From the NCBI GenBank assembly GCA_964600735.1, contig CAZRLL010000001.1, forward strand, positions 28,801-92,800: a DNA stretch of 64,000 nucleotides, given 5' to 3'. The notes below the pieces were generated by a model, which was not told the origin of the DNA, did not search any database, and saw only the letters and a program-made list of their open reading frames with translations. This document shows, in pieces, positions 4,218 through 57,704 of this stretch. Made by a program: the position numbers and the translations under genes. Within the stretch, counting starts at the first letter, position 1. Every line of letters begins with the position of its first letter. The DNA comes from an uncultured archaeon (lineage in GTDB: Archaea; Asgardarchaeota; Heimdallarchaeia; Heimdallarchaeales; Kariarchaeaceae).

Positions 4218-4613
4218 CTATACTGGGTCTCCAACAAACTCACCAATTTCCCGCCCAAGTACATCATACAATATAGCAAAAGAATCAACATATTCAACAA
4301 TACCGCCTGCACTACCATCTGCTCTTGCTTGGTACTTGTCTGCAAGCCCAAGATAAATCTTAGCAATCTGCCTCTTATCAAGTTCTATTGCACCTGGAAT
4401 CTTTAACAGAAACGCAGTCGCAGTTGCTTTAACTGCTAAGACTCTACAAGCAGCAGCAGACGCGTACCAAACGCTATCAGATTCCTGTTCAAGGAACGCA
4501 TCTATATCAGCATCTGAAAAATCGAAGTCAGTACCATAAGTCCCATCTGTAGTATCATGACAATAAAGTCTAACTTTACCCCTGTCACTCGTGGGGTCGA
4601 AAGAGAAACTCAT
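4218..4613 (-). CDS. Hypothetical protein
   Basis: ORF, 4-nt spacing to neighbouring genes. Confidence 0.3.
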   Translation of the reverse strand: MSFSFDPTSDRGKVRLYCHDTTDGTYGTDFDFSDADIDAFLEQESDSVWYASAAACRVLAVKATATAFLLKIPGAIELDKRQIAKIYLGLADKYQARADGSAGGIVEYVDSFAILYDVLGREIGEFVGDPV

Positions 4614-4834
4614 ATTAATCCACCTTCTTTCTTTCCAACTTTTTCGTTCTCTGCCCAGTTTCGACTAACGAAACTAACTCTTCAAGAGTTTCAAGAATAG
4701 AAATAGAACAAAGAGCAGTAGTTAACAACCAGGCCTCGTGTCTTGTCTTTGGGATTTTCGTTAAGTACTCATTTGCCTCACTACTTTCTAGTAAGTCTTC
4801 AAGAACTTTTCTGTACTTACTCATCTCTAGCCTC

Positions 4835-20340: not shown

Positions 20341-22194
20341 TTAAAACCAGTAACCAGACTCTTCTACAGTTTCTTGTTCAGGATAAGCTATTTCTAAAAT
20401 AATATGATAAGCAGACTGGATAATGTACCGCGAACAATCAAGCCCGTGGTCATCCATAGGGATAGGTTTTCTTCTAATAGGTTTTCCGTCAATACCACGC
20501 GGATACTTGTACTTTTCAAATTCGATTTCGGTACCAGGTAAGTCTGAATCGAGATACCTGTCTATTATATAGTAATAACTCTTCTCTTTCGCGCCATCTC
20601 CATAATCAAAGTACGTATCTAAATGAGCTCTGACAACATCAATTCCATCTTCTAACGCATTTACTGCAGAATACGTCTCTATATTATAGATCATGTCAAG
20701 GTCTATTCTTGCCTGTTTAGCAGAGGGATCAGCAAATATTATTTCTCCCTTCTTATAATCTGGACTGTTCTTTATCATCTGGGAATGATTCGCCATAGTA
20801 CTACTAGCAGACCTATATTCGTAGTAGATAGCAAACTTCAACTTGAATTTTAACTCCTCAACAGTTTCATCGACCTCTTCTATCGCCCTAACAACGTCAG
20901 CAAAATCAACTATGGCCTTCTGGTACACAAAGGGATGACCAGGACTACTTCCAAAGTCAACAGAGCTCATTGTTATTGTATGTTCACTAAAATCTATTGA
21001 CTGAACGTCGGGAACGTAATGAACTCCTTTATTCCAATTTTTTCCATAGACTAAAAACTCAGTACTAGGCTTCTTGTTGAACCATTGAGCGTCTAGAACG
21101 TCCTTATTTAACATTCTGACTTTGTCGATAAAGTCTTCTATCTTGTAGTACCCAGTACAGCTATGCGCCATCCCTCTACAGAATACTGGTTTACCCCAAA
21201 CTGGGCACTCGTCTTCAGTCTTTTCCTTACAATCGAAAGTGCACTTCTCTAAGATTTCCCATATACACCAAGAATAAACGACCATTCCAGTATCGTCGGC
21301 TTCTTCAAGTAGTCTCTGAAAGGTTCCGGAGTCGTACTTTCTAGTACTAAGAAACAGGTTTTGACCAGTAATTCCCTCTTTACTCATACTCATACTATGT
21401 GCTTCTTGGATTACGTCCCATTCAATCAACTCAACCTCATCTAACCGCACTTTCTGGGGATGAGGAGAATTCAAACCAGTCACGGTTCCAGTAATAACTT
21501 CCTGTTCTGAGTGATTGGTGTAGATCGTCTTAGATTTCGTAGGAATCCTCTCATACAAACTACTTAGAGTCGAGTTCTTATGAAACCCCAAAAAGTACTT
21601 GTAAACCTTATTTGCTTGCTCTTTAATAGCTCCAGCACTGGCAACCTCACAACCGCCTTTAAATGCCATATCTAAGTGATTTAACACTGCTACATTAGTC
21701 GTTTTCCCGCCAGTTCTATTCGCGAAAACTATAACGTTCCTTACCTCCTCAAAGAACATGTCCGCTACTAAATCGAAGGGAGAACAATGAGGATAGTCTG
21801 CCTCGTGTTTATCCGGATTAAACAACTCACATGTTCTTTGCCTTGGAATATTTAAGTTAAGGAATTCAGTGATATACCAATATAAAACCGCTCTATCTTC
21901 GATGCCGTTTTCTATTAAGCATTGAAACAACTCTTCGTGGCAATTCTTAACTCTATACCTTCTATCAAAACTTTCGGCGAATATTTCTCCGAAGTACGTA
22001 AACCCAGTATCAGATTCTATAGGTAACTCGAACCAATCACTTGGATACCGTCTATTTTTGATGTAATAACATAGCGCCTCAACACACACGTCATCTGGAG
22101 GTAAATGACTAGTCTGATCTAAGAACTTTTGACTAGGTATGACTTTCTTTTGTGGGATTTTTTTTCTTCTTGGTACTGGAGTAACTTTCTTCAT
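20341..22194 (-). CDS. terL: Terminase large subunit
   Basis: 617-aa ORF with Walker-A-like ANRTGGKTT and an Asp-rich C-terminal nuclease-like half. Adjacent to the portal gene. Confidence 0.7.
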
Positions 22195-22435
22195 CTCAGA
22201 ACGTACTCCTTTACTATTCGAAAATCGGTTTCGCCGTTTACGTCGTGAACAACGATCGTAGTCCAGTCTTTAGCTAGTAAAGCAACTTGAACGGCACTTT
22301 CTCTAGAAGAAACTATTTTGATAGCTCTCTTACTAGTTTCTCGCCTTACCGACCACTTACTTCTTGCAGATATAACGTGTATTCTACTTGGATTTCGAAG
22401 GCAGTGTATTAGTTTTTTCCGTATGTTATTTTTCA

Positions 22436-22636
22436 TTAGCCATGTGTAGGACAAGGCATCTCAGCCGTTGTCTTTCCTTTTAAATGGCAAGTACACCAAC
22501 CTGTAGAAGGTGATGGAGTTGAATATTCAAGACCAACAGTAACCCAGCCAAATCCACCACATCCATGGCAGGGTTTTTTATCGCTTCCATAAGTTCCCGA
22601 ACCGCCACAAACTTGACATATTTCTGCGTGTGACAT
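22436..22636 (-). CDS. DnaJ-type CxxCxGxG zinc-finger mini-protein
   Basis: CQVCGGSG ... CHGCGGFG repeats. Confidence 0.4.
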   Translation of the reverse strand: MSHAEICQVCGGSGTYGSDKKPCHGCGGFGWVTVGLEYSTPSPSTGWCTCHLKGKTTAEMPCPTHG

Positions 22637-24444: not shown

Positions 24445-24893
24445 AGTTTTACCTCATTTTTTTAGAATTTATAACTCCATTTACGAGTATACCAACAGAA
24501 ACCATTACTGAGGCGTAAGTAACGTTCCCTACTGTACGACCACGTGTTTTTGTAAGACCCGGCGTAGATAGAAACGTGGGGTTTTCGAAAACTACGGTCG
24601 AACCACAACCTAAGTTTAATAGCAGTACGCTTATACCTAACAAAAAGTGCTACTCTGACAATAAGCGGACTTGACTTGAAGTTGTAGTTTATACCATTCC
24701 TGTACTCTGTACCTTCTCGCATGTAGTGTATGTACTTCATAGTAGAACCTCGAATTTTTATATAATCTTTTTTGGGAAATTTTTAGATTTTTTTTTGGTA
24801 TTGTAAATCGCATCCCCCCTCCCACGCCCAAATGAAAAACGATTTCGCTTATAACGGACAGGGCCGCCCCCATCGGCTCGTTGAGTCGTCGAC

Positions 24894-25135
24894 TGCTCTA
24901 CGTCGCTACTACTAGTCGATACGACTGCTAGTAGTCGACTAGTCGCACACGTCAACGTCGCTACTACTAGTCGGTACGACTGATAGTAATAATCGACTGC
25001 TAGTAGTACTCGTGTAGCGTCGACTAGTCGATCAGTTAGAACCACTGTTGACACTAGTATTAGTCGATAAGACAACGTCGCTACTAGCAGTCGACTGGCT
25101 AACGTCGTTACACACGACTCGACGTCGACACGTGA
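24894..25135. repeat. Iteron cluster: at least 3 copies of CGTCGCTACTA(C/G)(T/C)AGTCG plus GACTGCTAGTAGT inverted copies and many SpeI/SalI-like palindromes. It is flanked by a GC-rich block (24820-24890) and a CT-rich block (25180-25330).
   Basis: Direct reading. The only large noncoding region in the window. Candidate ori, pac or terminase-recognition site. Confidence 0.6.
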
Positions 25136-25341
25136 CGTGTGCGAGTGAAACAGGAGAGTACGGTTATAGAGTCGTCTCAATTCTCTAATTTCCCTCTCCA
25201 CTCCTACATCTCCCAAACATACATATAACATCATACTCTCTCCATCTCTCTCTACTACTATACTATCCAAGGAGACTCTCTAGGACTGTCTGTTCTACTT
25301 ACATGTACTCTATCTCATGAGGCCTTCTTCGCGCTCCTATA

Positions 25342-25751: not shown

Positions 25752-26090
25752 CTACCTTTCTGGTAAGTCTCTAATAAGTCTAGCGTACTTCCTCTTTAGT
25801 TTTAAAGTCTTTGCATTTTCCCACATATGGAACTCTCCATCTAACGAATTGCAACGTCCATTTTTTGATGACCACTTAAGGGGACATTTCTCTACACAAC
25901 TCTCTTTATAACTGTCTCTTACCCATTCACATAAGAAACATTCACATTCTACTTCTGGGATCTTCCCACCGTTCTTTTTCCATTCAGGCCAGTCAGACTT
26001 CTCTTTCGTTGGGTTACGAGAACACCAGTCCCATAAATCGTCATGCAACTCGATTGTCCTTGCCTTGTTAAACTTTTTTCGTTTCGTCAT
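25752..26090 (-). CDS. Cys-rich protein, tandem paralog B
   Basis: Paralog of 25342..25737. Confidence 0.4.
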   Translation of the reverse strand: MTKRKKFNKARTIELHDDLWDWCSRNPTKEKSDWPEWKKNGGKIPEVECECFLCEWVRDSYKESCVEKCPLKWSSKNGRCNSLDGEFHMWENAKTLKLKRKYARLIRDLPER

Positions 26091-29977: not shown

Positions 29978-31546
29978 TCATTCATTTTTTCGTCTCCTAT
30001 ATTGAATTCGTTTCAATAAGCGATACATTCCCAGTTTGTGGATCCACCACAGTAAGAAAGTCTTCACCAAGTCTTTTCCCCAACACTTCACATATTGAGA
30101 ACATCTCTCTGACCGTAATACAGCCTGCCAATATTGTGATTGATAAGGTTTTGCAGCCCACATCCTTTCGAACATTGGTGTAGCTTTGAACTCCCTGTTC
30201 CATCTGTCCCATATTACCTCCAAATCTAACTTATGGTCGCTTAATCTGAATCTCTCCAATGGATTTAGCCGGTTTCCTATTAAAAGGTGATATTCGTCTG
30301 TGGTAAGCTTTGGCTTGAACTGATCTTCGTAAATTTTGGTTCCTGGATAAGGAGTGGTGACGCCGAATATGACGCCAGCCGATGGTTTGATTTCTTTCAA
30401 AAATTGGTGTGTAGATTCTAAATCTTTCGATGTCTCGCCAGGCAAATTCAAGAGCATTGTAGCGAAAGACCGCAACTTGTATTTCTTGCACCACGAGAAT
30501 ACGTGACGAATTTGATCTAGTGTTATTCCTTTGTTTACTTGATCCAAAAGTTGTTGGCTCCCCGATTCCACTCCTATATCTAGTTGTATGCATCCTGTGG
30601 CTTTTAGTCCCCTGATCATTTCCTCTGAACATATGTCTGCCCTCGTTTGAGTTGCGTAAGGTATTTCAACTATACTTTTTCTTGACGAATAAGTTTCAGT
30701 CTTACTCTTCCATTCAAACCACCCATTCATCCACTTCTTTGACATACCAAACATGTCGTCAAACAAGTAGAAAAAATCTATGCTATAAAATTCCTTCAAT
30801 TGCACAATCTCGTTTATGACATTTCCTACTGGTCGCAATCTACACGCTTTTCCTTCATTTGCCTGCCACACGTTATTCGCAGCACAAAAGTCGCAATCAA
30901 AAGGGCAACCTCTACCGGCAAAAATACAGACCATAGATGTGTAGATACGCCGAATAATAAGCTTCTGAGGATAAAGATAATAATCCATATCAACGAGATC
31001 ATAGCTAGGACTTGGTAAATCTCCCATATCCATGACTCTTCGTTTTTTTGTTTTAACATATTCTGGCTCCTTTAGTACGTAAGACATGTAAGCAATACCA
31101 GCAACTTCGTCTAACCGTTTAGTTACAGGTTTGTCGTACCAACACCATAAATCATAACAAGTCTCTTCTCCTTCTCCTAATACAGCTACATCGAAATTCG
31201 ACTCTTTAAAAATGAAGTCTTGCGGACTAATCGTACTATGCGCGTTTCCCACAAGTAAAGTTGTATCTGGTTGATTAAGTTTGACAATACCCCCAAGACG
31301 CATAATAGCAGGATAATCACTATGAAAAGCAGCCAACCCAACAAAACGGGATGGGTTACATCTAAGTTCTTGACTAATCGTTGAGTAGTGTACTTCAAGT
31401 TCATGAGGCCTATCACCTCCCTTTACGTCTACAATCTTAACCCTAAGACCCTTCTCTCTCAAATAAGCAGATAAGTAGAGAAAGTAATAAGGCGGATGCG
31501 GATTACGTGCATTAGTCGGACTTGTTATGAATAGAAAGTCTAACAT
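29978..31546 (-). CDS. B12-binding radical SAM enzyme
   Basis: CPFDCDFC (CxxxCxxC) and an N-terminal cobalamin-binding-like domain. The start was moved to MLDFLF with its RBS, because the ORF-track start overlaps the tRNA-like element. Confidence 0.65.
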   Translation of the reverse strand: MLDFLFITSPTNARNPHPPYYFLYLSAYLREKGLRVKIVDVKGGDRPHELEVHYSTISQELRCNPSRFVGLAAFHSDYPAIMRLGGIVKLNQPDTTLLVGNAHSTISPQDFIFKESNFDVAVLGEGEETCYDLWCWYDKPVTKRLDEVAGIAYMSYVLKEPEYVKTKKRRVMDMGDLPSPSYDLVDMDYYLYPQKLIIRRIYTSMVCIFAGRGCPFDCDFCAANNVWQANEGKACRLRPVGNVINEIVQLKEFYSIDFFYLFDDMFGMSKKWMNGWFEWKSKTETYSSRKSIVEIPYATQTRADICSEEMIRGLKATGCIQLDIGVESGSQQLLDQVNKGITLDQIRHVFSWCKKYKLRSFATMLLNLPGETSKDLESTHQFLKEIKPSAGVIFGVTTPYPGTKIYEDQFKPKLTTDEYHLLIGNRLNPLERFRLSDHKLDLEVIWDRWNREFKATPMFERMWAAKPYQSQYWQAVLRSERCSQYVKCWGKDLVKTFLLWWIHKLGMYRLLKRIQYRRRKNE

Positions 31547-31557
31547 AAATTTAAAGG

Positions 31558-31646
31558 TTGGGAGTAGGAGAGATTCGAACTCTTCGGGTTGTACTCCACT
31601 ACCATGTGGACCCACCGGTTCTGCGCTAAAACCGGCTCTACTCCCA
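31558..31646 (-). tRNA. tRNA-like element. It has a 7-bp acceptor stem and a T-arm AGAGTTCGAATCTCT identical to Ser-type tRNAs, but non-canonical D/anticodon arms (TCCAC-ATGGTA-GTGGA hairpin with a 6-nt loop). Isotype undetermined; it may be a degenerate tRNA or att-related.
   Basis: Reverse complement is GGGAGTAGAGCCGG...GAAGAGTTCGAATCTCTCCTACTCCCA. Confidence 0.4.
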
Positions 31647-32422: not shown

Positions 32423-33097
32423 TTACTCTCCTATACCATCAAATATTACTGGCACTCTTTTCTGGAATTCTTTAAGTGTTGGTATCATTATCTCCTGCAT
32501 CTGTGGATGGGCTGCTTTGGCTGTACGGAGTTTGAAGATATGCCGCCACTCACGAAAGTTGGCCGTGACTACCAGTTCGGTCTTAAGGGAGTTTGGAAGA
32601 ACTGATCTGGCTTGCTGTGGGGACCAACCTAAATGGAGTAAATTCATATAAGTTTCTTCTGTACTATAAACAAGTTGAGCCCAGTCATAGTTTGCTTGAT
32701 CTTCTCCCCCAAGATCGTCTGGAGTGTCATAATCTCCCGGGTCAATATCAACCCAAGGTGGAATAACAAAAGTAACCCCTCCTTTATAATTACAGTACCT
32801 TGTACTCTCCTGGCTGAAGGCACAAAGCCTATGTCTGACCCACTCATGGCTGACCCCTCTATCAATAACAAACTTGACTGTAACCGCAGAGTGCTCAAGA
32901 ACAGATTCATGGCCTCTTTTTAAAATCATCTTAACAAAGTTAATAGCTGAAGTAGCGGTTATTTGATCTTCTGACTTGTAACAAGTTCTCCCAGCATGCT
33001 CTATTAAAGCAATAGGTGTATCACAAGGTAACATCTCATGTGCAGGATCGTACCCCATAATTGACAAAATTTCAAAACTCGGTTTTACTAGAAACAT
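32423..33097 (-). CDS. thyX: Flavin-dependent thymidylate synthase ThyX
   Basis: RHRLCAFSQESTRY matches the ThyX RHRxxxxxxxS motif. Confidence 0.85.
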   Translation of the reverse strand: MFLVKPSFEILSIMGYDPAHEMLPCDTPIALIEHAGRTCYKSEDQITATSAINFVKMILKRGHESVLEHSAVTVKFVIDRGVSHEWVRHRLCAFSQESTRYCNYKGGVTFVIPPWVDIDPGDYDTPDDLGGEDQANYDWAQLVYSTEETYMNLLHLGWSPQQARSVLPNSLKTELVVTANFREWRHIFKLRTAKAAHPQMQEIMIPTLKEFQKRVPVIFDGIGE

Positions 33098-33221: not shown

Positions 33222-34049
33222 TCATTTGTACCTCTCTTGCTCATACCACCAGGACCTAACCCAACCTTGAAGGAATTTTGGTAACACATCAAACACTTCC
33301 ATCAAGTAGTAATATAACATTATCTTATAATACCATCTTCGCGACACTTCACTTTTCCACTTCCTAACAATCTTTCTAGACTCTTCCCTACGCTTATGAA
33401 CATCACCTATAACAGAGCCATAATGAATAGACAAAGTTCCACCAAGATTATCTGGTATGTAATGGAACTGGTACTTAGAAGCAACCTTCAACCACAAGTC
33501 CCAGTCGTGACTAATTTTAAACTTCCAGTCCATGGGACCAAACTCATTGTATACACTACTTCTTATTAACACAGAAGAAGTTGGGACGAAGTTCTTTCTA
33601 AGTAAAACTTCAAAAACTTCACCAGAAAAACAAGTTGACATCTTACTCCACAACTCAGACCTACCAACGTCAACATACTTTACTAGCATATTGTGGTAAG
33701 AAAAGACTTCTCCAGTTACTTCTAAGTACCAAACTTGCAATTTTAACTTCTCTGGCTCCCACAAGTCGTCGCTATCTAAAAATGCAAGATACTTCCCCTT
33801 AGCATTAGCACAACCTGTATTTCTAGGATGAACTGGGCACCCACTATTCCTTCCCATATCAATGTATCTAATTCTGCCATCACAGATTGTATGCGACGCT
33901 ACAACTTGTTTAGTGTTATCGGTAGACCCATCATCAACAACAATAATCTCTAAGTCCTTAAAAGTCTGCATTTGAACAGACTCTATTGCTATAACTAAAT
34001 CGTCTACCCTATTATACGTTGGTATTATAACAGATACTATTGGGTCCAT
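33222..34049 (-). CDS. Family 2 glycosyltransferase
   Basis: VSVIIPTYNRVDDL...EIIVVDDGSTDNT. Confidence 0.7.
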   Translation of the reverse strand: MDPIVSVIIPTYNRVDDLVIAIESVQMQTFKDLEIIVVDDGSTDNTKQVVASHTICDGRIRYIDMGRNSGCPVHPRNTGCANAKGKYLAFLDSDDLWEPEKLKLQVWYLEVTGEVFSYHNMLVKYVDVGRSELWSKMSTCFSGEVFEVLLRKNFVPTSSVLIRSSVYNEFGPMDWKFKISHDWDLWLKVASKYQFHYIPDNLGGTLSIHYGSVIGDVHKRREESRKIVRKWKSEVSRRWYYKIMLYYYLMEVFDVLPKFLQGWVRSWWYEQERYK

Positions 34050-35985: not shown

Positions 35986-37899
35986 TTATCTCCACCCCAC
36001 TTTGCTAAAATGGTCACACATACTAGTAACTACCCAACAACCATGAGCACAATAACATTTGTCCCTTTTTATATACTTTAACTCTTGCTTCATAGATGAC
36101 CCATTTAGAGCTTTAGTAACGTCGTAGTTGTAATACGCTAAGTCAGTCACTGTATCTCTCATCTCACACGCTACCAACTTACCGTCCGGGTAAATAGTAA
36201 ATGCCTTTTTACCAGCCAAACAAGGAAAGTCCCAAGGTTTACCTATAGTAGAATTAAGATACTGGACGTTAAATCTTCTCTTAGTTAGTAAATAATAAGA
36301 AAAGTAGTTCTTCTTTATAACTTCTAGAAGCCCTTTATACATTCCATCAAGGGAAACGTGGTACTTAAAACCTCTAAAAGACCTTTCAACCTCAAAGTTG
36401 TGATAATCTAGACTAGGGAAAGCGTACGCCATCTCTTTAGCGAAGTCAACTAACTTGTCCATAGTTCCTGGTGTTATCAAAGTATTGATACATACGTTTA
36501 AACCTTTATCTGTAGGTTTAAATGACAATAAAACCCTTAAAGTATCCATTGCCCTACTATATGACTTGTCATTCCCCCTCATTTCATTATGCGTTTTCTC
36601 GAATCCATCTAAAGATACAGATACAGTAATAGTTTTATGCTTAGCGACTAAAATCTTAGCCATCATGCCCTTTACTGCTAAAGGTCGCATACCGTTAGTA
36701 TTTATCCAAACATTGCTCTTTTCAGAAAACATATTAATAGCGTCTTGTATTCTATCATATAGGAAAGGTTCGCCACCCGTTAGTAGTACGTTGTTTGGAG
36801 TAACACTACGATGAATAGATCTTACGTTGACAATATCCATATCACCATACGTATGCAACTTACCCTTGTAGAAACAAGCCTTACATGACAAATTGCATTT
36901 GTCAGTAAGGAACAGTATCATTAAGTCTACACTACTTTCGTTTTTCCTAGAAGGTAGCCAGTCCTCGTAGTAGTGGTAGAAGTTCTTTGCTCTTACTATA
37001 AGGTGAGCTTTTACTTTTCCAGGGAGAAGTAAATGCCGCTTTATTTTTTGGCGTAACGTAGGATTAGCATTAAATTCTTTATAAGATAAAGATTGCCCCC
37101 TTCCCTTCACAAAACTAAAACATCTATCCCTTGCTTGACCCAGAGCAACGTCTGCGCTCCAATCACCACCAGGAGTAAGTAGTGCTTTAGCAGTGTAGCC
37201 TTCTTTATGAATACGATAGTTAGTAAGTCGATCCTTCAACATATAAAAAACGTAGTAGTACGAACATTTAAGTAAGAATACCCAATCTTCATGCTGATAT
37301 AACAAGTCTTCATCAAACCCACCAACAGCTTCAACTACCTCTCTTTTAACCATGATAGAAGATGAACAAATAGGATCACCATCAGACAAGATACCAAAGT
37401 GAGTACGCTTACGTAACTGTGCTAACAACTTTTCATTCCAAAACGAATCCCAGTAGCCTTTTGCCGGACTAGTTCCAAAAATTCCTCTACCAGGTTTCCC
37501 TACCCATGTCGCAGTTTCTTGGCTAATTATAGTATTAACTCCAGTATGTACTACGCCAGCGTCTTGCTCTTCCATCGCCAGTACTTGTTTCTCTAGCTTA
37601 GTGGGTTCCCAGTAGTCGTCTGCATCTAGATAGGCTATATAGTCGCCAGTACTTATTCTAAAACCCAAGTTTCTACTCTTACTAACACCTAAGTTTTCAA
37701 AATTCTCTATTACTCGTAACTTCTCTTTTAAACTATCTTCATATCTACCTACTACTACCAAACCACCATCAGACGAAAAGTCGTCTACTACAATAATCTC
37801 CCAGTTAGTATAAGTCTGAGATAATACACTGTCTATTGCTTGACCTATGTACCTCTCGTAGTTGTAGAGTGGAATTATAACAGATACTTTACTCAACAT
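35986..37899 (-). CDS. Fusion of a GT2 glycosyltransferase (N-terminus) and a radical SAM/SPASM-like domain (C-terminus)
   Basis: N-terminus VSVIIPLYNYERYIGQAIDSVLSQTY...EIIVVDDFSSDGG. C-half has CNLSCKAC (CxxxCxxC) and further Cys clusters. Confidence 0.6.
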   Translation of the reverse strand: MLSKVSVIIPLYNYERYIGQAIDSVLSQTYTNWEIIVVDDFSSDGGLVVVGRYEDSLKEKLRVIENFENLGVSKSRNLGFRISTGDYIAYLDADDYWEPTKLEKQVLAMEEQDAGVVHTGVNTIISQETATWVGKPGRGIFGTSPAKGYWDSFWNEKLLAQLRKRTHFGILSDGDPICSSSIMVKREVVEAVGGFDEDLLYQHEDWVFLLKCSYYYVFYMLKDRLTNYRIHKEGYTAKALLTPGGDWSADVALGQARDRCFSFVKGRGQSLSYKEFNANPTLRQKIKRHLLLPGKVKAHLIVRAKNFYHYYEDWLPSRKNESSVDLMILFLTDKCNLSCKACFYKGKLHTYGDMDIVNVRSIHRSVTPNNVLLTGGEPFLYDRIQDAINMFSEKSNVWINTNGMRPLAVKGMMAKILVAKHKTITVSVSLDGFEKTHNEMRGNDKSYSRAMDTLRVLLSFKPTDKGLNVCINTLITPGTMDKLVDFAKEMAYAFPSLDYHNFEVERSFRGFKYHVSLDGMYKGLLEVIKKNYFSYYLLTKRRFNVQYLNSTIGKPWDFPCLAGKKAFTIYPDGKLVACEMRDTVTDLAYYNYDVTKALNGSSMKQELKYIKRDKCYCAHGCWVVTSMCDHFSKVGWR

Positions 37900-38363: not shown

Positions 38364-39377
38364 TCATCTCAAGTACTCCTCGTCCTTGTAAATATTCGCA
38401 TCCAAATCGACATAAGGCCACCAGTCTTTGTAGTTCTTTTTATACCACTCTATAGTAAGATGTAATCTATCCTTAAAGTTAGACCTTAAAAACTGACTCT
38501 TCCAAAGAGAATTACACTTTAAGGCGTAGCGACTGTCGTTGCCAGGACGATTTGGTACTTTTTTTACGTACTCCTCACCAATCCTGGCTTGGTTGCAAAC
38601 TACTTCCTTTAGTACAGCACTCATTATTTCTCTATTGTTACGTCTTACACCGCTACCTACATTGAAAGTATTTCCATCAAAACCCTTATGCATAATTATA
38701 TCTATAGCACGACAACAATCCTCAACGTAGACGTATTCTCTAACTTCATCTCCATCTCCATGCAAGATCATTCTTTTATTCTCAAGAAGTCTTGTTATAC
38801 ACATTGGAATAAGCTTCTCTGGGTATTGATTAGGCCCATAGTTGTTACATGGTCTAACAATCAAAACTGGAAAGTTGTACGTTTTAAAGTACGAAAGTAA
38901 AAGTATGTCTGCAGACGCTTTACTAGCAGAATAGGGAGACGTCGGATTAAGTCTAGCAACAGTATCAGCCTCAAAACCAACAGGTAAGGAACCATAAACC
39001 TCATCAGTTGATATCTGAACAAACCTTCTCACTTTTGCTTTTCTAGCCGCCTGTACCAGATTAATAAGCCCGACTATATCAGTTTGTATAAAGTCAACTG
39101 GATTGTGTATACTACGATCAACGTGAGTTTCAGCAGCAAAGTTCACAACCACTTCTATCTCATGGTCCTTTAAAATTGACCTAATATAGGTATCTCCTAT
39201 ATCAAAAGTGTAAGTCGTAAAGTTGTTGTAATCCTGTGGAGGAGGTATATTTTTAATGTTGCCAGCGTAGGTAAGCTTATCCACGTTAACGATATTGTAG
39301 TCTGGGTATTTACGAAGTAGTCTTTTAATAAAATGGCTACCTATGAAACCACAACCCCCAGTAACTAATATATTCAT
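38364..39377 (-). CDS. dTDP-glucose 4,6-dehydratase-like SDR (RfbB family)
   Basis: MNILVTGGCGFIGSHF Rossmann motif and overall RfbB-like layout. Confidence 0.75.
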   Translation of the reverse strand: MNILVTGGCGFIGSHFIKRLLRKYPDYNIVNVDKLTYAGNIKNIPPPQDYNNFTTYTFDIGDTYIRSILKDHEIEVVVNFAAETHVDRSIHNPVDFIQTDIVGLINLVQAARKAKVRRFVQISTDEVYGSLPVGFEADTVARLNPTSPYSASKASADILLLSYFKTYNFPVLIVRPCNNYGPNQYPEKLIPMCITRLLENKRMILHGDGDEVREYVYVEDCCRAIDIIMHKGFDGNTFNVGSGVRRNNREIMSAVLKEVVCNQARIGEEYVKKVPNRPGNDSRYALKCNSLWKSQFLRSNFKDRLHLTIEWYKKNYKDWWPYVDLDANIYKDEEYLR

Positions 39378-44834: not shown

Positions 44835-45539
44835 TTACTTCTGAGCTAAAAGACTAGCAACAGAATAGTCGAACTGAGTGTTGATATCTATACTTCTTTC
44901 TTCTGGCATCACGTATGCTACCATTCCAGCAATGTACTGCTCTTTACGTTTACGTAACATCTCAACATCACAAACCCAAACAGCCCCGTTAGAAAGATAC
45001 ACCCTTTCGCTCACTGTTAAGACGCCCCAGGATCCTCCATCCCGTCTCCACATTACACCATCATTAGAAATAGTTGCGCATGTTGCAGGATTAAAGTTAA
45101 GTTCCTTAACACTCATAACAGGCCTTCTATCCTTTTTATAAAACAAATCGACCGCATTAATTAAATCTTCAGCACTACAGAAAGGGGACGTTGGTAAAGT
45201 CATAACAACAGTAGTAACCTTCATATTACACTTAAGTTGCAACCTATCTACAGAATCTAAACAAACTTCCCACGCTCTAGATGTACCCTCATTTAGTCCA
45301 TTGCTACGTTTCATAAAATAAACTTCTGCTGTACTATAAATACGAGCTTGCCGTAAAACACCATGACCATCGCTACTAACAACGACCATTCCAAGACCAC
45401 TTTCTAACGACCTGTCAACTGCTATTTCAACTAAAGTTTTATTTCCAAACTTCCCGCCAAGGCACAGTAAGTTCTTACTTGGAAGACGCTTTGATATTAC
45501 CTTTGCCGGAACTACAATTGCTACTGAACTATTTTTCAT
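44835..45539 (-). CDS. CMP-nonulosonic acid synthetase (acylneuraminate cytidylyltransferase family, NeuA/PseF-like)
   Basis: N-terminus SVAIVVPAKVISKRLPSKNLLCLGGK matches the cytidylyltransferase P-loop-like motif. Confidence 0.7.
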   Translation of the reverse strand: MKNSSVAIVVPAKVISKRLPSKNLLCLGGKFGNKTLVEIAVDRSLESGLGMVVVSSDGHGVLRQARIYSTAEVYFMKRSNGLNEGTSRAWEVCLDSVDRLQLKCNMKVTTVVMTLPTSPFCSAEDLINAVDLFYKKDRRPVMSVKELNFNPATCATISNDGVMWRRDGGSWGVLTVSERVYLSNGAVWVCDVEMLRKRKEQYIAGMVAYVMPEERSIDINTQFDYSVASLLAQK

Positions 45540-46518
45540 TTATACCCTCAATCAAATTCTTTAAAACAACAATATCCTCGATAAGAACGTCTAATGAAGA
45601 ATACTTAAAGTTATTTGGTACTTTATCCCAAATCTCGACAGAAAAATTAAAATCGAAAAAACTAGTATCAGGGACTACAATATACATTTCAGGTACTTCG
45701 TAAGTCCTACAAACCTCTTCTGGAGAAATTAAAACCTCATGTAACTTCTCGCCAGGTCGTATTCCAGTGTATCTTATTCTACATTCTTCACATACTGCAA
45801 TAGCAACGTTTTTGACAGTAGCTGATCTAAGTTTTGGAACTAATATTTCTCCACCCTCCATCGCACGAAGTGCCAACATTACAAAGTCGACTGCTTGATC
45901 AACTGTCCACCAAAACCTAGTCATACGCCTGTCGGTTACAAGTAACACTCCCATTTCTGCTTGTTCCCGAAAAGTATTCAAAACAGAACCCCGACTACCA
46001 AGTACATTTCCATACCTAACAACACTAAACTTCGTTACTTTCTTACCAAGAGTATTTGCATTAATAAACAGTTTTTCCGCTAGCAACTTCGTAGTACCAT
46101 ACAAGTTAATAGGGTTAACTGCTTTATCTGTGCTCAAAGCCACTACCTGCTTAACCCCAGTTTCTATAGCAGCCTCTATAATATTAGCGGCACCATCAAC
46201 ATTAGTCTTCTTTGCTTCTAATGGGTTGTACTCACACGCCGGCACTTGTTTCATGGCCGCAGCATGAACAACGTAGTCAACCCCAGACATAGCCATAGTA
46301 AGGCGACTCCTATCCCTCACATCGCCAATAAAGAATCTGAGTTGTTTGTTTGGTTTAGGTCTACCAAAACTCTCAAACAATTTATCTTGCTTATACTCAT
46401 CTCTTGAATATATAATTATTTTCCTCAACTTCGGATACAAATTATAAAAACGTCTAGCTAGTATCGATCCAAACGTCCCAGTTCCACCAGTAATCATCAC
46501 AACCTTATTTTCAAACAT
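45529..46518 (-). CDS. UDP-GlcNAc 4,6-dehydratase/5-epimerase (PseB/CapD family)
   Basis: MFENKVVMITGGTGTFGS Rossmann start and PseB-like length. Confidence 0.75.
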   Translation of the reverse strand: MFENKVVMITGGTGTFGSILARRFYNLYPKLRKIIIYSRDEYKQDKLFESFGRPKPNKQLRFFIGDVRDRSRLTMAMSGVDYVVHAAAMKQVPACEYNPLEAKKTNVDGAANIIEAAIETGVKQVVALSTDKAVNPINLYGTTKLLAEKLFINANTLGKKVTKFSVVRYGNVLGSRGSVLNTFREQAEMGVLLVTDRRMTRFWWTVDQAVDFVMLALRAMEGGEILVPKLRSATVKNVAIAVCEECRIRYTGIRPGEKLHEVLISPEEVCRTYEVPEMYIVVPDTSFFDFNFSVEIWDKVPNNFKYSSLDVLIEDIVVLKNLIEGINEK

Positions 46519-56005: not shown

Positions 56006-56523
56006 TCATCCTCTTTGTATGTATAAAATTTACTACTAAACCAACCACCCTCCATATAAACAGTGTCTGAAATAGTAGCTTCACATTTAAAGCTACATCC
56101 TTCAAATAAGCGAATACCTGGCACATTAAAAGCATATATTTCAGCATATATACGATGAAGCCCTAAAACGTCAAAGGCTTTTATTTTCAAGTACCTCAAT
56201 ACCTCACTCCCAATTCCAGTTCTCCTTCTGAAAGAATCTCCAATGTAAATACTAACTTCGGCGCTCCTGTTGATAAGATCAATGTAACACAAACCGCAGA
56301 CCCCAACCAGTTCAGCATGCTCATTAATATCAGACCTAGAAGAGACAATTCCATACATCAAGTTTTTATCAAGATCTAAATTATCAAACCAACTCTTATG
56401 CTCTTTCCAAGAAAGTTCCCTCCACTGCCTAGTCCTCGACATAATAAGTGGATCATTTCGCCACTTAAATAGAGTTAGTAAGTCTTCTTCATCAATGGGT
56501 CTCAGCACGACATATAAAGTCAT
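55996..56523 (-). CDS. GNAT N-acetyltransferase (PseH-like)
   Basis: RRRTGIGSEVL..KAFDVLGLHRIYAEI acetyl-CoA-binding motif. Adjacent to the aminotransferase. Confidence 0.55.
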   Translation of the reverse strand: MTLYVVLRPIDEEDLLTLFKWRNDPLIMSRTRQWRELSWKEHKSWFDNLDLDKNLMYGIVSSRSDINEHAELVGVCGLCYIDLINRSAEVSIYIGDSFRRRTGIGSEVLRYLKIKAFDVLGLHRIYAEIYAFNVPGIRLFEGCSFKCEATISDTVYMEGGWFSSKFYTYKEDDWR

Positions 56524-57704
56524 AATAAGTAATCTCCAGTCTCTAGAAGTTCTTTAGTAGCAGATACGACATGGTTAACATCTTTAGTCGTCATACCTGG
56601 TCCTAAAGGAAGACTAACAGTACGTTTTCCAATCCATTCTGCATTATTAAACATTCCGGAGTGCCACCCCAAGTTCCGATAACAAGGATGTAAATTAACT
56701 GGCTTATAATGAATGCCACAATAAACCTGTTTTTCCCGCATTTTAGCAATAAAGTCGTCACGGTTACCAAGGCAGATTGTGTACAGATGATATCCATGAA
56801 CGTACCCAACATTAGGATTCAAAGATGGTCTAATTCCAGGATAGATTCCATTAAAAATTTCACGATTACAGAAATTCTTAAAGGCAAGATTATATTGATT
56901 CCAAATGTACTTTCTAGCCTCCCAGTTAGCTTCAACGTTCCTTAGTTGAGACAAAGCGACTACCGCCTCAAAATCAGTGCAATTAGCTTTATAACCGCAA
57001 TCAACAAGACTATAAGTGCCATTACTGTTAACCCTCTCTGAAGCCTCAGCGTCCATCCCATGAATACGTAACCTCCTCAACTTTTCTGCTTTCTCTTCAT
57101 CGTTCGTAACTATCATACCCATCTCTGGAGCAGCAATATTTTTAGTAGGATTAAAAGAGTAACATCCCATGTCCCCAAACGTCCCGACATGTTGCCTATG
57201 AAACTGAGTCTCTACCGCATGAGCACAATCTTCTACTATCCTAGCTCCAGTCTCTTTACTTAACTCAACAAACTCATTCATGTTACAAGGAAAGCCAGCA
57301 AAGTGGACTGGAAGTAAAACATCGTCAGGACCTGGTTTAGGGAAAATGTTACTCGGGTTCATACATTGAGTATCAAAGTTGATGTCAGCCAGGAAAACTC
57401 CCCTAGCACCAGCGTGGATAGCAGAGTTAATAGTAGAACAAAACGTTAAAGGGCTTGTGTAGACATAATGATCTCTAACATCTAAAACTATCAGGCTCAA
57501 AAACAAAGACATAGAACAACTATTAGTAGCAATAGCATATTTAGCCCCAACGTACTCTGCGAACTCTTTTTCGAGATTCTTAGTGTATTCACCCATAGTC
57601 CACCATCCAGAAGTCAAGACAGTCATCAAGTCAAGCAGAACACGCTGCGTATTTATATTAGGTTTTGCTAAAGGAATCATGTACCAGTACCTGCGCGATA
57701 CCAA
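56520..57704 (-). CDS. DegT/DnrJ/EryC1 PLP-dependent sugar aminotransferase (PseC-like)
   Basis: MIPLAKPNINTQRVLLDLMTVLTSGWWTMGEYTKNLEKEFAEYVGAKYAIATNSCS. Confidence 0.8.
   Translation of the reverse strand: MVSRRYWYMIPLAKPNINTQRVLLDLMTVLTSGWWTMGEYTKNLEKEFAEYVGAKYAIATNSCSMSLFLSLIVLDVRDHYVYTSPLTFCSTINSAIHAGARGVFLADINFDTQCMNPSNIFPKPGPDDVLLPVHFAGFPCNMNEFVELSKETGARIVEDCAHAVETQFHRQHVGTFGDMGCYSFNPTKNIAAPEMGMIVTNDEEKAEKLRRLRIHGMDAEASERVNSNGTYSLVDCGYKANCTDFEAVVALSQLRNVEANWEARKYIWNQYNLAFKNFCNREIFNGIYPGIRPSLNPNVGYVHGYHLYTICLGNRDDFIAKMREKQVYCGIHYKPVNLHPCYRNLGWHSGMFNNAEWIGKRTVSLPLGPGMTTKDVNHVVSATKELLETGDYLL

Follow-up and report, generated by a model that had tools for sequence, protein, structure and literature searches.

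In lambdoid phages the packaging site combines the conserved elements cosQ and cosN with a variable cosB, which in lambda contains three R sites, R2 being inverted, together with a bend made by IHF (PMC4669245). The pac sites of SPP1 and SF6 are made up of box repeats and bent DNA, and small terminases form a ring of N-terminal helix-turn-helix (HTH) domains (PMC4737164). Here we describe a repeat array in a non-coding hub of a 64,000-nt stretch of contig CAZRLL010000001.1 (assembly GCA_964600735.1), hereafter called the window, which is the reverse complement of positions 27388-91387 of the 111,339-bp scaffold_73 (ENA ERZ23499938; NCBI locus tags FVQ80_), on which the hub falls at about 66.05-66.65 kb. 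This scaffold is filed within a Planctomycetes metagenome-assembled genome, and its content is clearly that of a tailed phage. The hub lies upstream of the gene for the large terminase, TerL, and our leading reading, to which we give a probability of about 0.4, is that the array is a pac- or cosB-like recognition site for a 166-aa HTH protein encoded on the other side of the hub.

Repeat array in a non-coding gap

All credible genes of the window lie on the minus strand, and the 601 bp from 24741 to 25341 form the sole gap longer than 340 bp between them, in agreement with an earlier reading of the letters (the sequence-only reading), which had named this region as the one sizeable stretch without credible coding. 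A second gap of about 1 kb considered at 1116-2188 was rejected, as it is occupied by an open reading frame (ORF) that runs off the end of the window. The ORF called across the repeats is judged spurious, as the sequence-only reading had suspected, because its codon score (-0.10) is the lowest in the neighborhood, its peptide is built from the repeats and it has a homologue in none of the relatives described below. The 92-aa ORF that follows the gap has a marginal codon score and no homologue was found for it; if it is not a gene, the non-coding region would reach to about 24445.

Each half-site of the array consists of two conserved blocks around a free dinucleotide NN (Table 1). Twelve matches to the core CGACTNNTAGTAG with at most one mismatch occur in the 64 kb, eight of them on both strands within 24906-25093 (<190 bp), compared with 1.35 ± 1.18 per window in shuffled sequences, none of 100 of which reached 12. 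Two imperfect head-to-head palindromes of 29 bp with a 13-3-13 layout (24906-24934 and 24961-24989, 55 bp apart) are enclosed by a 37-nt unit that occurs twice with 92% identity (24897-24933 and 24952-24988, also 55 bp apart). On three half-sites an extension, GCGACGT(T/A)G on the sense strand, gives rise to a 21-nt direct repeat, CAACGTCGCTACTACTAGTCG, present at 24898, 24953 and 25073 with 90-100% identity. The region further contains 17 inverted-repeat pairs, including perfect ones of 14 and 12 nt, of which a 12-bp perfect inverted repeat (24943-54 with 25133-44) brackets most of the array, as well as CGACTAGTCG mini-palindromes at 24935-45 and 25021-31. Five copies each of ACTAGT and GTCGAC fall in the array, where 0.12 and 0.03 would be expected from the rest of the window, and it holds 31 CpG dinucleotides against 7.7 expected. 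Recurring 9-mers cover 49% of the 350 nt located 5′ of the G-rich box, a level reached by none of 170 background windows taken from the surrounding 18 kb (median 5%, maximum 25%). The sequence-only reading had listed at least three direct repeats of about 18 bp, interleaved inverted copies, many ACTAGT/GTCGAC palindromes and a GC-rich run; each of these is recovered in our analysis, the direct repeats as three copies of the 21-nt unit, the inverted copies as the eight cores on both strands and the inverted-repeat pairs, and the run as GGGCGTGGGAGGGGGG at 24829->24814, the longest G-dense stretch of the window.

As single-stranded DNA the array folds better than shuffled sequences (z = -3.65). 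Because the NN dinucleotides are not complementary between the arms of either palindrome, we favor recognition of duplex DNA over recognition of hairpins, and a role as cis-acting protein-binding sites that would be read as double-stranded DNA is well supported. The array sequence is conserved in none of the collected TerL relatives. An exact scan for the repeat in IMG/VR returned one chance match inside a coding region, and the same scan over 596 Gb of GTDB genomes returned 46 single matches, which is chance level, with no second array anywhere in these genomes. Rfam produced only a chance match of the region to mir-21 (E = 0.13).

On the sense strand the array is followed by two G-rich boxes and an A/T-rich segment. 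Box 1 is possibly a degenerate counterpart of the GGGGGCGGGG box found in relatives, lacking the TTTGRAAY element that accompanies it there. A canonical G-quadruplex was considered and rejected, as the motif is absent from the window. The A/T-rich segment is likely to be intrinsically bent, because its T/A runs (24755-59, 24768-73, 24780-84 and 24788-96) are spaced 10-13.5 bp apart. It also holds ATTTACAAT (24808->24800), a GAGG ribosome-binding site ahead of the ATG at 24740, and a weak sigma70-like match, TTTACA-17-AAAAAT, with four promoter matches counted against 3.7 expected from shuffles. On the other side of the array lies the purine-rich, C-poor tract that the sequence-only reading had seen as a long CT-rich tract; the tract is there, but the whole sense strand of this genome is C-poor, and we rejected it as a special feature because its composition is typical of that strand.

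Direct repeats, inverted partial repeats, G/C-rich boxes and an A/T-rich segment in a row are also what an iteron-type replication origin would offer, with the three 21-bp repeats as iterons, the inverted partial copies as operator-like sites and the boxes plus A/T segment as the unwinding element, as in lambda ori or in the origins of theta plasmids such as RK2 (oriV). Three direct repeats of 21 nt do stand beside an A/T-rich segment that could unwind, lineage-specific repeats beside conserved elements (see below) would suit iterons paired with host-recognised elements, and lactococcal phages have non-coding, repeat-rich origins between gene blocks. Against an origin, the repeats are unevenly spaced (120 and 55 bp), the scan of flanking proteins revealed neither a replication initiator nor a helicase or primase, and across relatives the hub stays with TerL and not with any replication gene. 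The GC-skew inflection that had been proposed as a check did not appear: neither GC nor AT skew changes at the site, and the cumulative GC skew declines steadily from one end of the window to the other, straight through the array. We regard an origin at this site as quite improbable.

Table 1. Positions of the repeat array, its flanking elements and the genes discussed in the text (window coordinates)
Feature	Position	Strand	Remarks
Repeat array, 262 bp	24883..25144	minus	Eight 13-bp half-sites CGACT-NN-TAGTAG, both orientations
Half-sites	24906-18, 24922-34, 24961-73, 24977-89, 24994-25006, 25054-66, 25081-93, plus 24925-37		24925-37 overlaps 24922-34
G-rich box 1, sense GGGGGCGGCCC	24861..24871 (24871->24861)	minus	11 nt 3′ of the array
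G-rich box 2, sense GGGCGTGGGAGGGGGG	24814..24829 (24829->24814)	minus	Longest G-dense stretch on the sense strand of the 64-kb window
A/T-rich segment, 79% A+T	24741..24812	minus	Among the three richest 70-nt windows
Purine-rich, C-poor sense tract (the CT-rich tract)	25165..25330	minus	Non-coding
ORF, 170 aa, overlying the repeats	24758..25270	minus	Judged spurious
First ORF after the hub, 92 aa	24462-24740	minus	Very rich in R, K, Y and W; codon score 0.05, marginal; good GAGG ribosome-binding site
Two paralogous Cys-rich proteins, 131 and 112 aa	25342-25737, 25752-26090	minus	Directly 5′ of the non-coding region
HTH protein, 166 aa	27383..27883	minus	Best small-terminase candidate; 2 kb from the array
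Very basic protein, 207 aa	22975-23598	minus	Weak PHROG matches: endonuclease VII, Lar-like
DUF2188 protein, 87 aa (E = 4.5e-5)	22191-22454	minus	Overlaps the TerL start codon
Large terminase TerL	20341..22194	minus	2.5 kb downstream of the hub; anchor gene for relatives
Lambda-family portal	18713-20257	minus	
Fusion of MuF head-morphogenesis domain and ADP-ribosyltransferase toxin domain (PF04233 + PF03496), 1842 aa	13185-18713	minus	
Example ORFs of the metabolic block	29978-31615, 32423-33097, 33222-34049, 35986-37899, 38364-39377, 45529-46518, 56520-57704		

Hubs upstream of TerL in related phages

Relatives were collected as TerL homologues (38-59% identity) from IMG/VR, JGI metagenomes and other assemblies, and in them TerL is preceded, at a distance of 0-6 kb, by a non-coding hub of comparable kind. 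The 350 nt 5′ of the G-box are exceptionally repeat-dense in six lineages (the window, L152, L151, L033, L047 and, to a lesser degree, L030), with repeat units that are unrelated in sequence between lineages: a 24-mer in 12 copies in L152 (the same phage as L012), 22-mers in L151, a 12-mer in five copies and an 8-mer in eight in L033 (microsatellite-like 8-mers and 6-mers), a 47-mer and a 13-mer in L047, a 20-mer in two copies in L030, and the CGACT-NN-TAGTAG half-sites in the window lineage. Tandem arrays near TerL may also be coding, as is seen in L043, where an array of 11.7 copies of an 18-bp unit (4550-4760) was rejected as iterons in view of a hexapeptide-repeat ORF on the opposite strand.

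Many of these hubs have in common a core in which a G/C-run, typically GGGGGCGGGG, is followed by TTTGRAAY and by a second G-box 37-48 nt downstream, and the composite motif occurs on the sense strand only, in seven lineages (L003, L024, L033, L040, L055, L058 and L074). In L030, L006, L047 and L055 the second G-box provides the 5′ arm of a hairpin that has a T-run behind it, and a ATTTACAA motif recurs after the G-box in L033, L046, L072 and L151. A structured RNA in the core was rejected, as RNAalifold finds no consensus structure in the aligned cores. Scanning IMG/VR for GGGGGCGGGG..TTTGRAA was likewise set aside, as its 72 matches included one relative only (L093, the same contig as L033). 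In the window, the G-dense box at 24814-24829 stands between the array and the first downstream gene, a position that it shares with the G-boxes of L152, L151 and L033; its position and exceptional G density are the only features that argue for a degenerate equivalent of the relatives' core.

Two more distant relatives have a hub of about 1 kb, rich in repeats and palindromes, as the sole separator of the HTH-protein gene and TerL (L021:767-1731 and L074:672-1682). The hub of L021 contains a perfect 24-bp palindrome, ATCATCAATGTTAACATTGATGAT, and 2.7 copies of CCGGAAAATATAGTA right before the TerL start codon.

The contigs of L013, L047, L059, L003, L033, L072 and L012 start 0-474 nt upstream of the G-box, as they would if a physical genome end, either a cohesive-end site or a terminal-repeat boundary, lay in or next to the G-rich boxes and the repeats were terminal reiterations comparable to SRL/SRR of T7 or to the herpesvirus a sequence, a reading that overlaps with a packaging function. 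A G/C-rich 10-11-mer would make a stable cohesive end in a genome of 39% G+C, and in lambda, too, the cohesive end, GGGCGGCGACCT, is rich in G on the sense strand of the terminase. The order of G-rich, T-rich and again G-rich elements is moreover the layout of herpesvirus pac1 (PMC13595911). The contig starts themselves, however, were rejected as evidence of a terminus. Among Logan contigs of the same sample, the end of L149 and the start of L011 overlap by 28 nt inside the array (window 24951-24978), which indicates a branch of the assembly graph and not a DNA end; no exact repeat as long as the assembler's word size is found at this break, which suggests that the population is heterogeneous there, perhaps in how many copies of the 55-bp unit its members carry. 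L152 reads through the array where L012 stops, L059 starts where the array ends, and the start of L013 is a homopolymer-garbled G-box region. Three contigs of 105-112 kb also read through the hub and end at positions that are non-homologous relative to it; these ends fit circular or concatemeric templates but do not discriminate between packaging modes, being compatible with headful packaging without being specific to it. An end of the genome at this site seems to us very unlikely.

A helix-turn-helix protein as candidate reader of the array

As possible binders of the array, the sequence-only reading had proposed the small basic proteins encoded at 22.4-23.6 kb, for which no supporting evidence emerged: the very basic 207-aa protein has no Pfam match, and a search of 5.8 billion protein clusters brought up no homologue other than itself. 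The 166-aa HTH protein is a better candidate. Its family is small, with only 30 relatives among 1.84 billion representative proteins, and homologues are encoded directly 5′ of the hub in five lineages (L152, L151, L150, L021 and L074). A structural model of the family (predicted local distance difference test score, pLDDT, 81) places an N-terminal HTH (pLDDT >95) before two long helices, three beta strands and an acidic tail, a predicted domain order that fits small terminases, in which the parts behind the N-terminal HTH follow one another in the same way. A single-sequence AlphaFold model of the 166-aa protein was discarded for its poor quality. The family profile reached the Pam5 small terminase in the PDB at E = 0.039, five TerS PHROG families were matched below threshold (E of at least 1e-3), and the best small whole-chain fold match was 2AO9 (probability 0.82, E = 0.21), which we take to be a prophage small-terminase-like nonamer. 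The HTH also resembles Hin-like and sigma-region-4-like domains. Scans of the flanking proteins found no other TerS candidate near TerL, and PDB sequence searches with the 131-aa, 166-aa and 207-aa proteins gave no match. The DUF2188 protein sits at the position expected of a small terminase and does not resemble one.

Packaging ranks first in our view on account of a unique site, of the link of the hub with TerL and with a TerS-like protein, of variable repeats beside a conserved core, and of repeats combined with bent DNA. The options of a pac or cos site or a terminase-binding array, which the sequence-only reading had raised, find indirect support in the relatives, where the hub tracks TerL and abuts the gene for the TerS-like HTH protein in five lineages. 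The array would then be a set of lineage-specific, double-stranded binding sites for the phage-encoded HTH protein within a TerL-linked non-coding hub. We infer that the 166-aa protein binds the array and is the small terminase; its oligomers would assemble on the eight half-sites, the bent A/T-tract segment next to the array may aid wrapping of the DNA, and TerL would be placed to cut nearby, so that cutting and packaging would start at the hub.

Several observations weigh against such a packaging site. The assignment of the protein to TerS stays below threshold, the Pam5 match in the PDB included; none of the Pfam TerS families is matched by the family, Foldseek gave no match below E = 0.02, and BFVD nothing significant. 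Its significant similarities are limited to HTH domains of the LuxR/NarL/GerE type, which would suit a transcription factor too. In the window, eight small genes intervene over the 2 kb between the HTH gene and the array, the encoded protein is without the GRP arm present in most family members, and a non-coding spacer of 1 kb between terS and terL would be unusual. The composite of G/C-run and TTTGRAAY is absent from the window, and an nhmmer profile of the relatives' cores does not single out the window site (24814-24844), which ranks fourth with E = 3.2. The contig ends of relatives near the hub are explained by tandem arrays and G-runs and are not necessarily DNA ends.

The transcription-factor similarities of the HTH protein also bear on control of the late genes, in which the array would hold operator or activator sites for a phage regulator, maybe the same HTH protein, upstream of the promoter of the packaging and structural operon of about 25 kb, much as the lambda Q gene is followed by pR'-tR' and as p4 sites lie in the early/late switch region of phi29. 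The hub is the only sizeable gap that could hold a strong promoter for this downstream operon, ATTTACAAT, TTTACA-17-AAAAAT and a good ribosome-binding site precede the first gene, ATTTACAA recurs after the G-box in four relatives, and a terminator-like hairpin with a T-run stands before the first late gene in L030, L006, L047 and L055. The Q gene of lambdoid phages is an example of a regulator gene placed directly ahead of the promoter that it controls. In the window, however, promoter-like matches are at chance (4 against 3.7) and no terminator-like hairpin was found in the hub; arrays of 8-12 sites, such as the 12 24-mers of L152 or the 8-mers and 6-mers of L033, are atypical of promoters, and the HTH is N-terminal here and C-terminal in LuxR-type regulators. 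On this evidence a late-operon switch, which the sequence-only reading had not considered, is a serious competitor of the packaging reading, in our view somewhat less probable. Returning to packaging, one elaborate version would give the clade a non-coding packaging center of 0.6-1 kb between the small- and large-terminase genes, with a herpesvirus pac1-like core of G-tract, T-rich element and G-tract and with fast-evolving arrays that set specificity, the window array being one such module read by a Hin/LuxR-like HTH small terminase 2 kb away; we consider this full scheme improbable.

The two Cys-rich paralogues have in common DWPxWKxNGGxIPxxExxCFLCEW, and no homologue of either was found in any relative or in the PDB. 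On the sense strand a metabolic block of about 39 kb (64-25.3 kb) precedes the non-coding region, which is followed by seven small ORFs, TerL, the portal, the fusion of MuF and ADP-ribosyltransferase domains, and the head genes. The block (25342-64000) is co-directional and of nonulosonic-acid type, with sugar, radical-SAM, aminotransferase, glycosyltransferase and ThyA-like genes, and could serve glycan synthesis or DNA hypermodification. Its members include NeuB, a B12-radical SAM enzyme, a ThyA-like protein, two nucleotide-sugar epimerases, an aminotransferase and GtrB-like glycosyltransferases, one of them fused to a radical SAM domain, and its size is unusually large for a phage. In relatives, variants of the MuF fusion carry intein/HINT or kinase-like domains.

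The scaffold exists in two assemblies, of 111,339 and 111,280 bp, suggesting a phage genome of about 111 kb that is complete and was assembled as a circle. A tRNA search found no tRNAs. No close sequenced phage was found by megablast of the region 23.5-26.5 kb against 50,697 phage records, and in the same records the best tblastn match of TerL was Microcystis phage Mvi-JY20 at 24% identity. TerL is not of the GpA family, and its profile matched nothing in the PDB or Pfam. Many TerLs of the clade are 700-1050 aa long and contain intein splicing domains (PF14890; P0034, P0052, P0056, P0060, P0068 and others), and that of the window is free of inteins.

Comparison with described packaging sites, origins and switches

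The kind of element that we describe is familiar. What is undescribed, judging from the collections searched, is its sequence, together with the clade-wide hub and the family of the candidate small terminase. Should the packaging reading hold, the array and the HTH protein would be a pair of recognition site and small terminase for deep-branching environmental phages of about 110 kb, and the contrast between changing repeats and a conserved G-rich core would illustrate the diversification of packaging specificity. The hub would still be the main cis-regulatory landmark of the genome if it were a late switch or an origin instead, and it is also a breakpoint in metagenomic assemblies of these phages and a spot at which gene callers predict a false ORF. 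On any of these readings the element is of an ordinary type, new in its sequence and not in its mechanism.

Like the early/late switches of lambda Q and phi29 p4, the locus has a regulator-like HTH gene immediately before the non-coding region that leads into the late genes, and some relatives add a hairpin with a T-run. It differs from the known switches in its much larger number of sites, in having no terminator within the window and in its lack of similarity to Q or p4. With iteron origins (lambda ori and those of RK2, pPS10 and P1 oriR) it shares direct repeats of 19-22 bp, inverted partial repeats, G/C elements and an A/T segment, whereas an adjacent initiator gene, regular spacing and a skew signal are lacking here. 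The relatives' hubs resemble pac1 in the herpesvirus a sequence in having a T-rich element between two G-tracts and, around these, short tandem reiterations that vary with the lineage (PMC13595911); this is an analogy of layout only, with no homology claimed, and the window version is degenerate.

Like the array with its putative recognition copies and its probably bent A/T segment, lambda cos (cosQ-cosN-cosB, with R3, R2, R1 and the IHF site I1) is a unique non-coding site tied to the terminase genes, with TerS-sized recognition copies in both orientations, bent DNA nearby and a conserved core beside lineage-specific repeats (PMC4669245). The two have no sequence similarity, and the order is reversed, with the G-rich boxes here standing between the repeats and TerL. 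Eight half-sites take the place of the three R sites, the phased A/T tracts lie beside the repeats and not, like the lambda bend, between them, and TerL is not GpA. The array does not share the position of lambda cos immediately upstream of terS and terL: it is separated by 2 kb from the candidate terS gene upstream of it, and TerL follows 2.5 kb downstream, beyond seven small ORFs. From the pac sites of SPP1 and SF6 (pacL-pacC-pacR, boxes A, B and C) the arrangement differs in that our hub lies 3′ of the candidate terS, measures 0.6-1 kb and has repeats that are longer, partly palindromic and well conserved in sequence. What the two would have in common are direct repeats and bent A-tract DNA, the bend being a likely one here, next to the gene for a small protein with an N-terminal HTH (PMC4737164), a gene that the hub abuts in five related lineages and that lies 2 kb away in the window.

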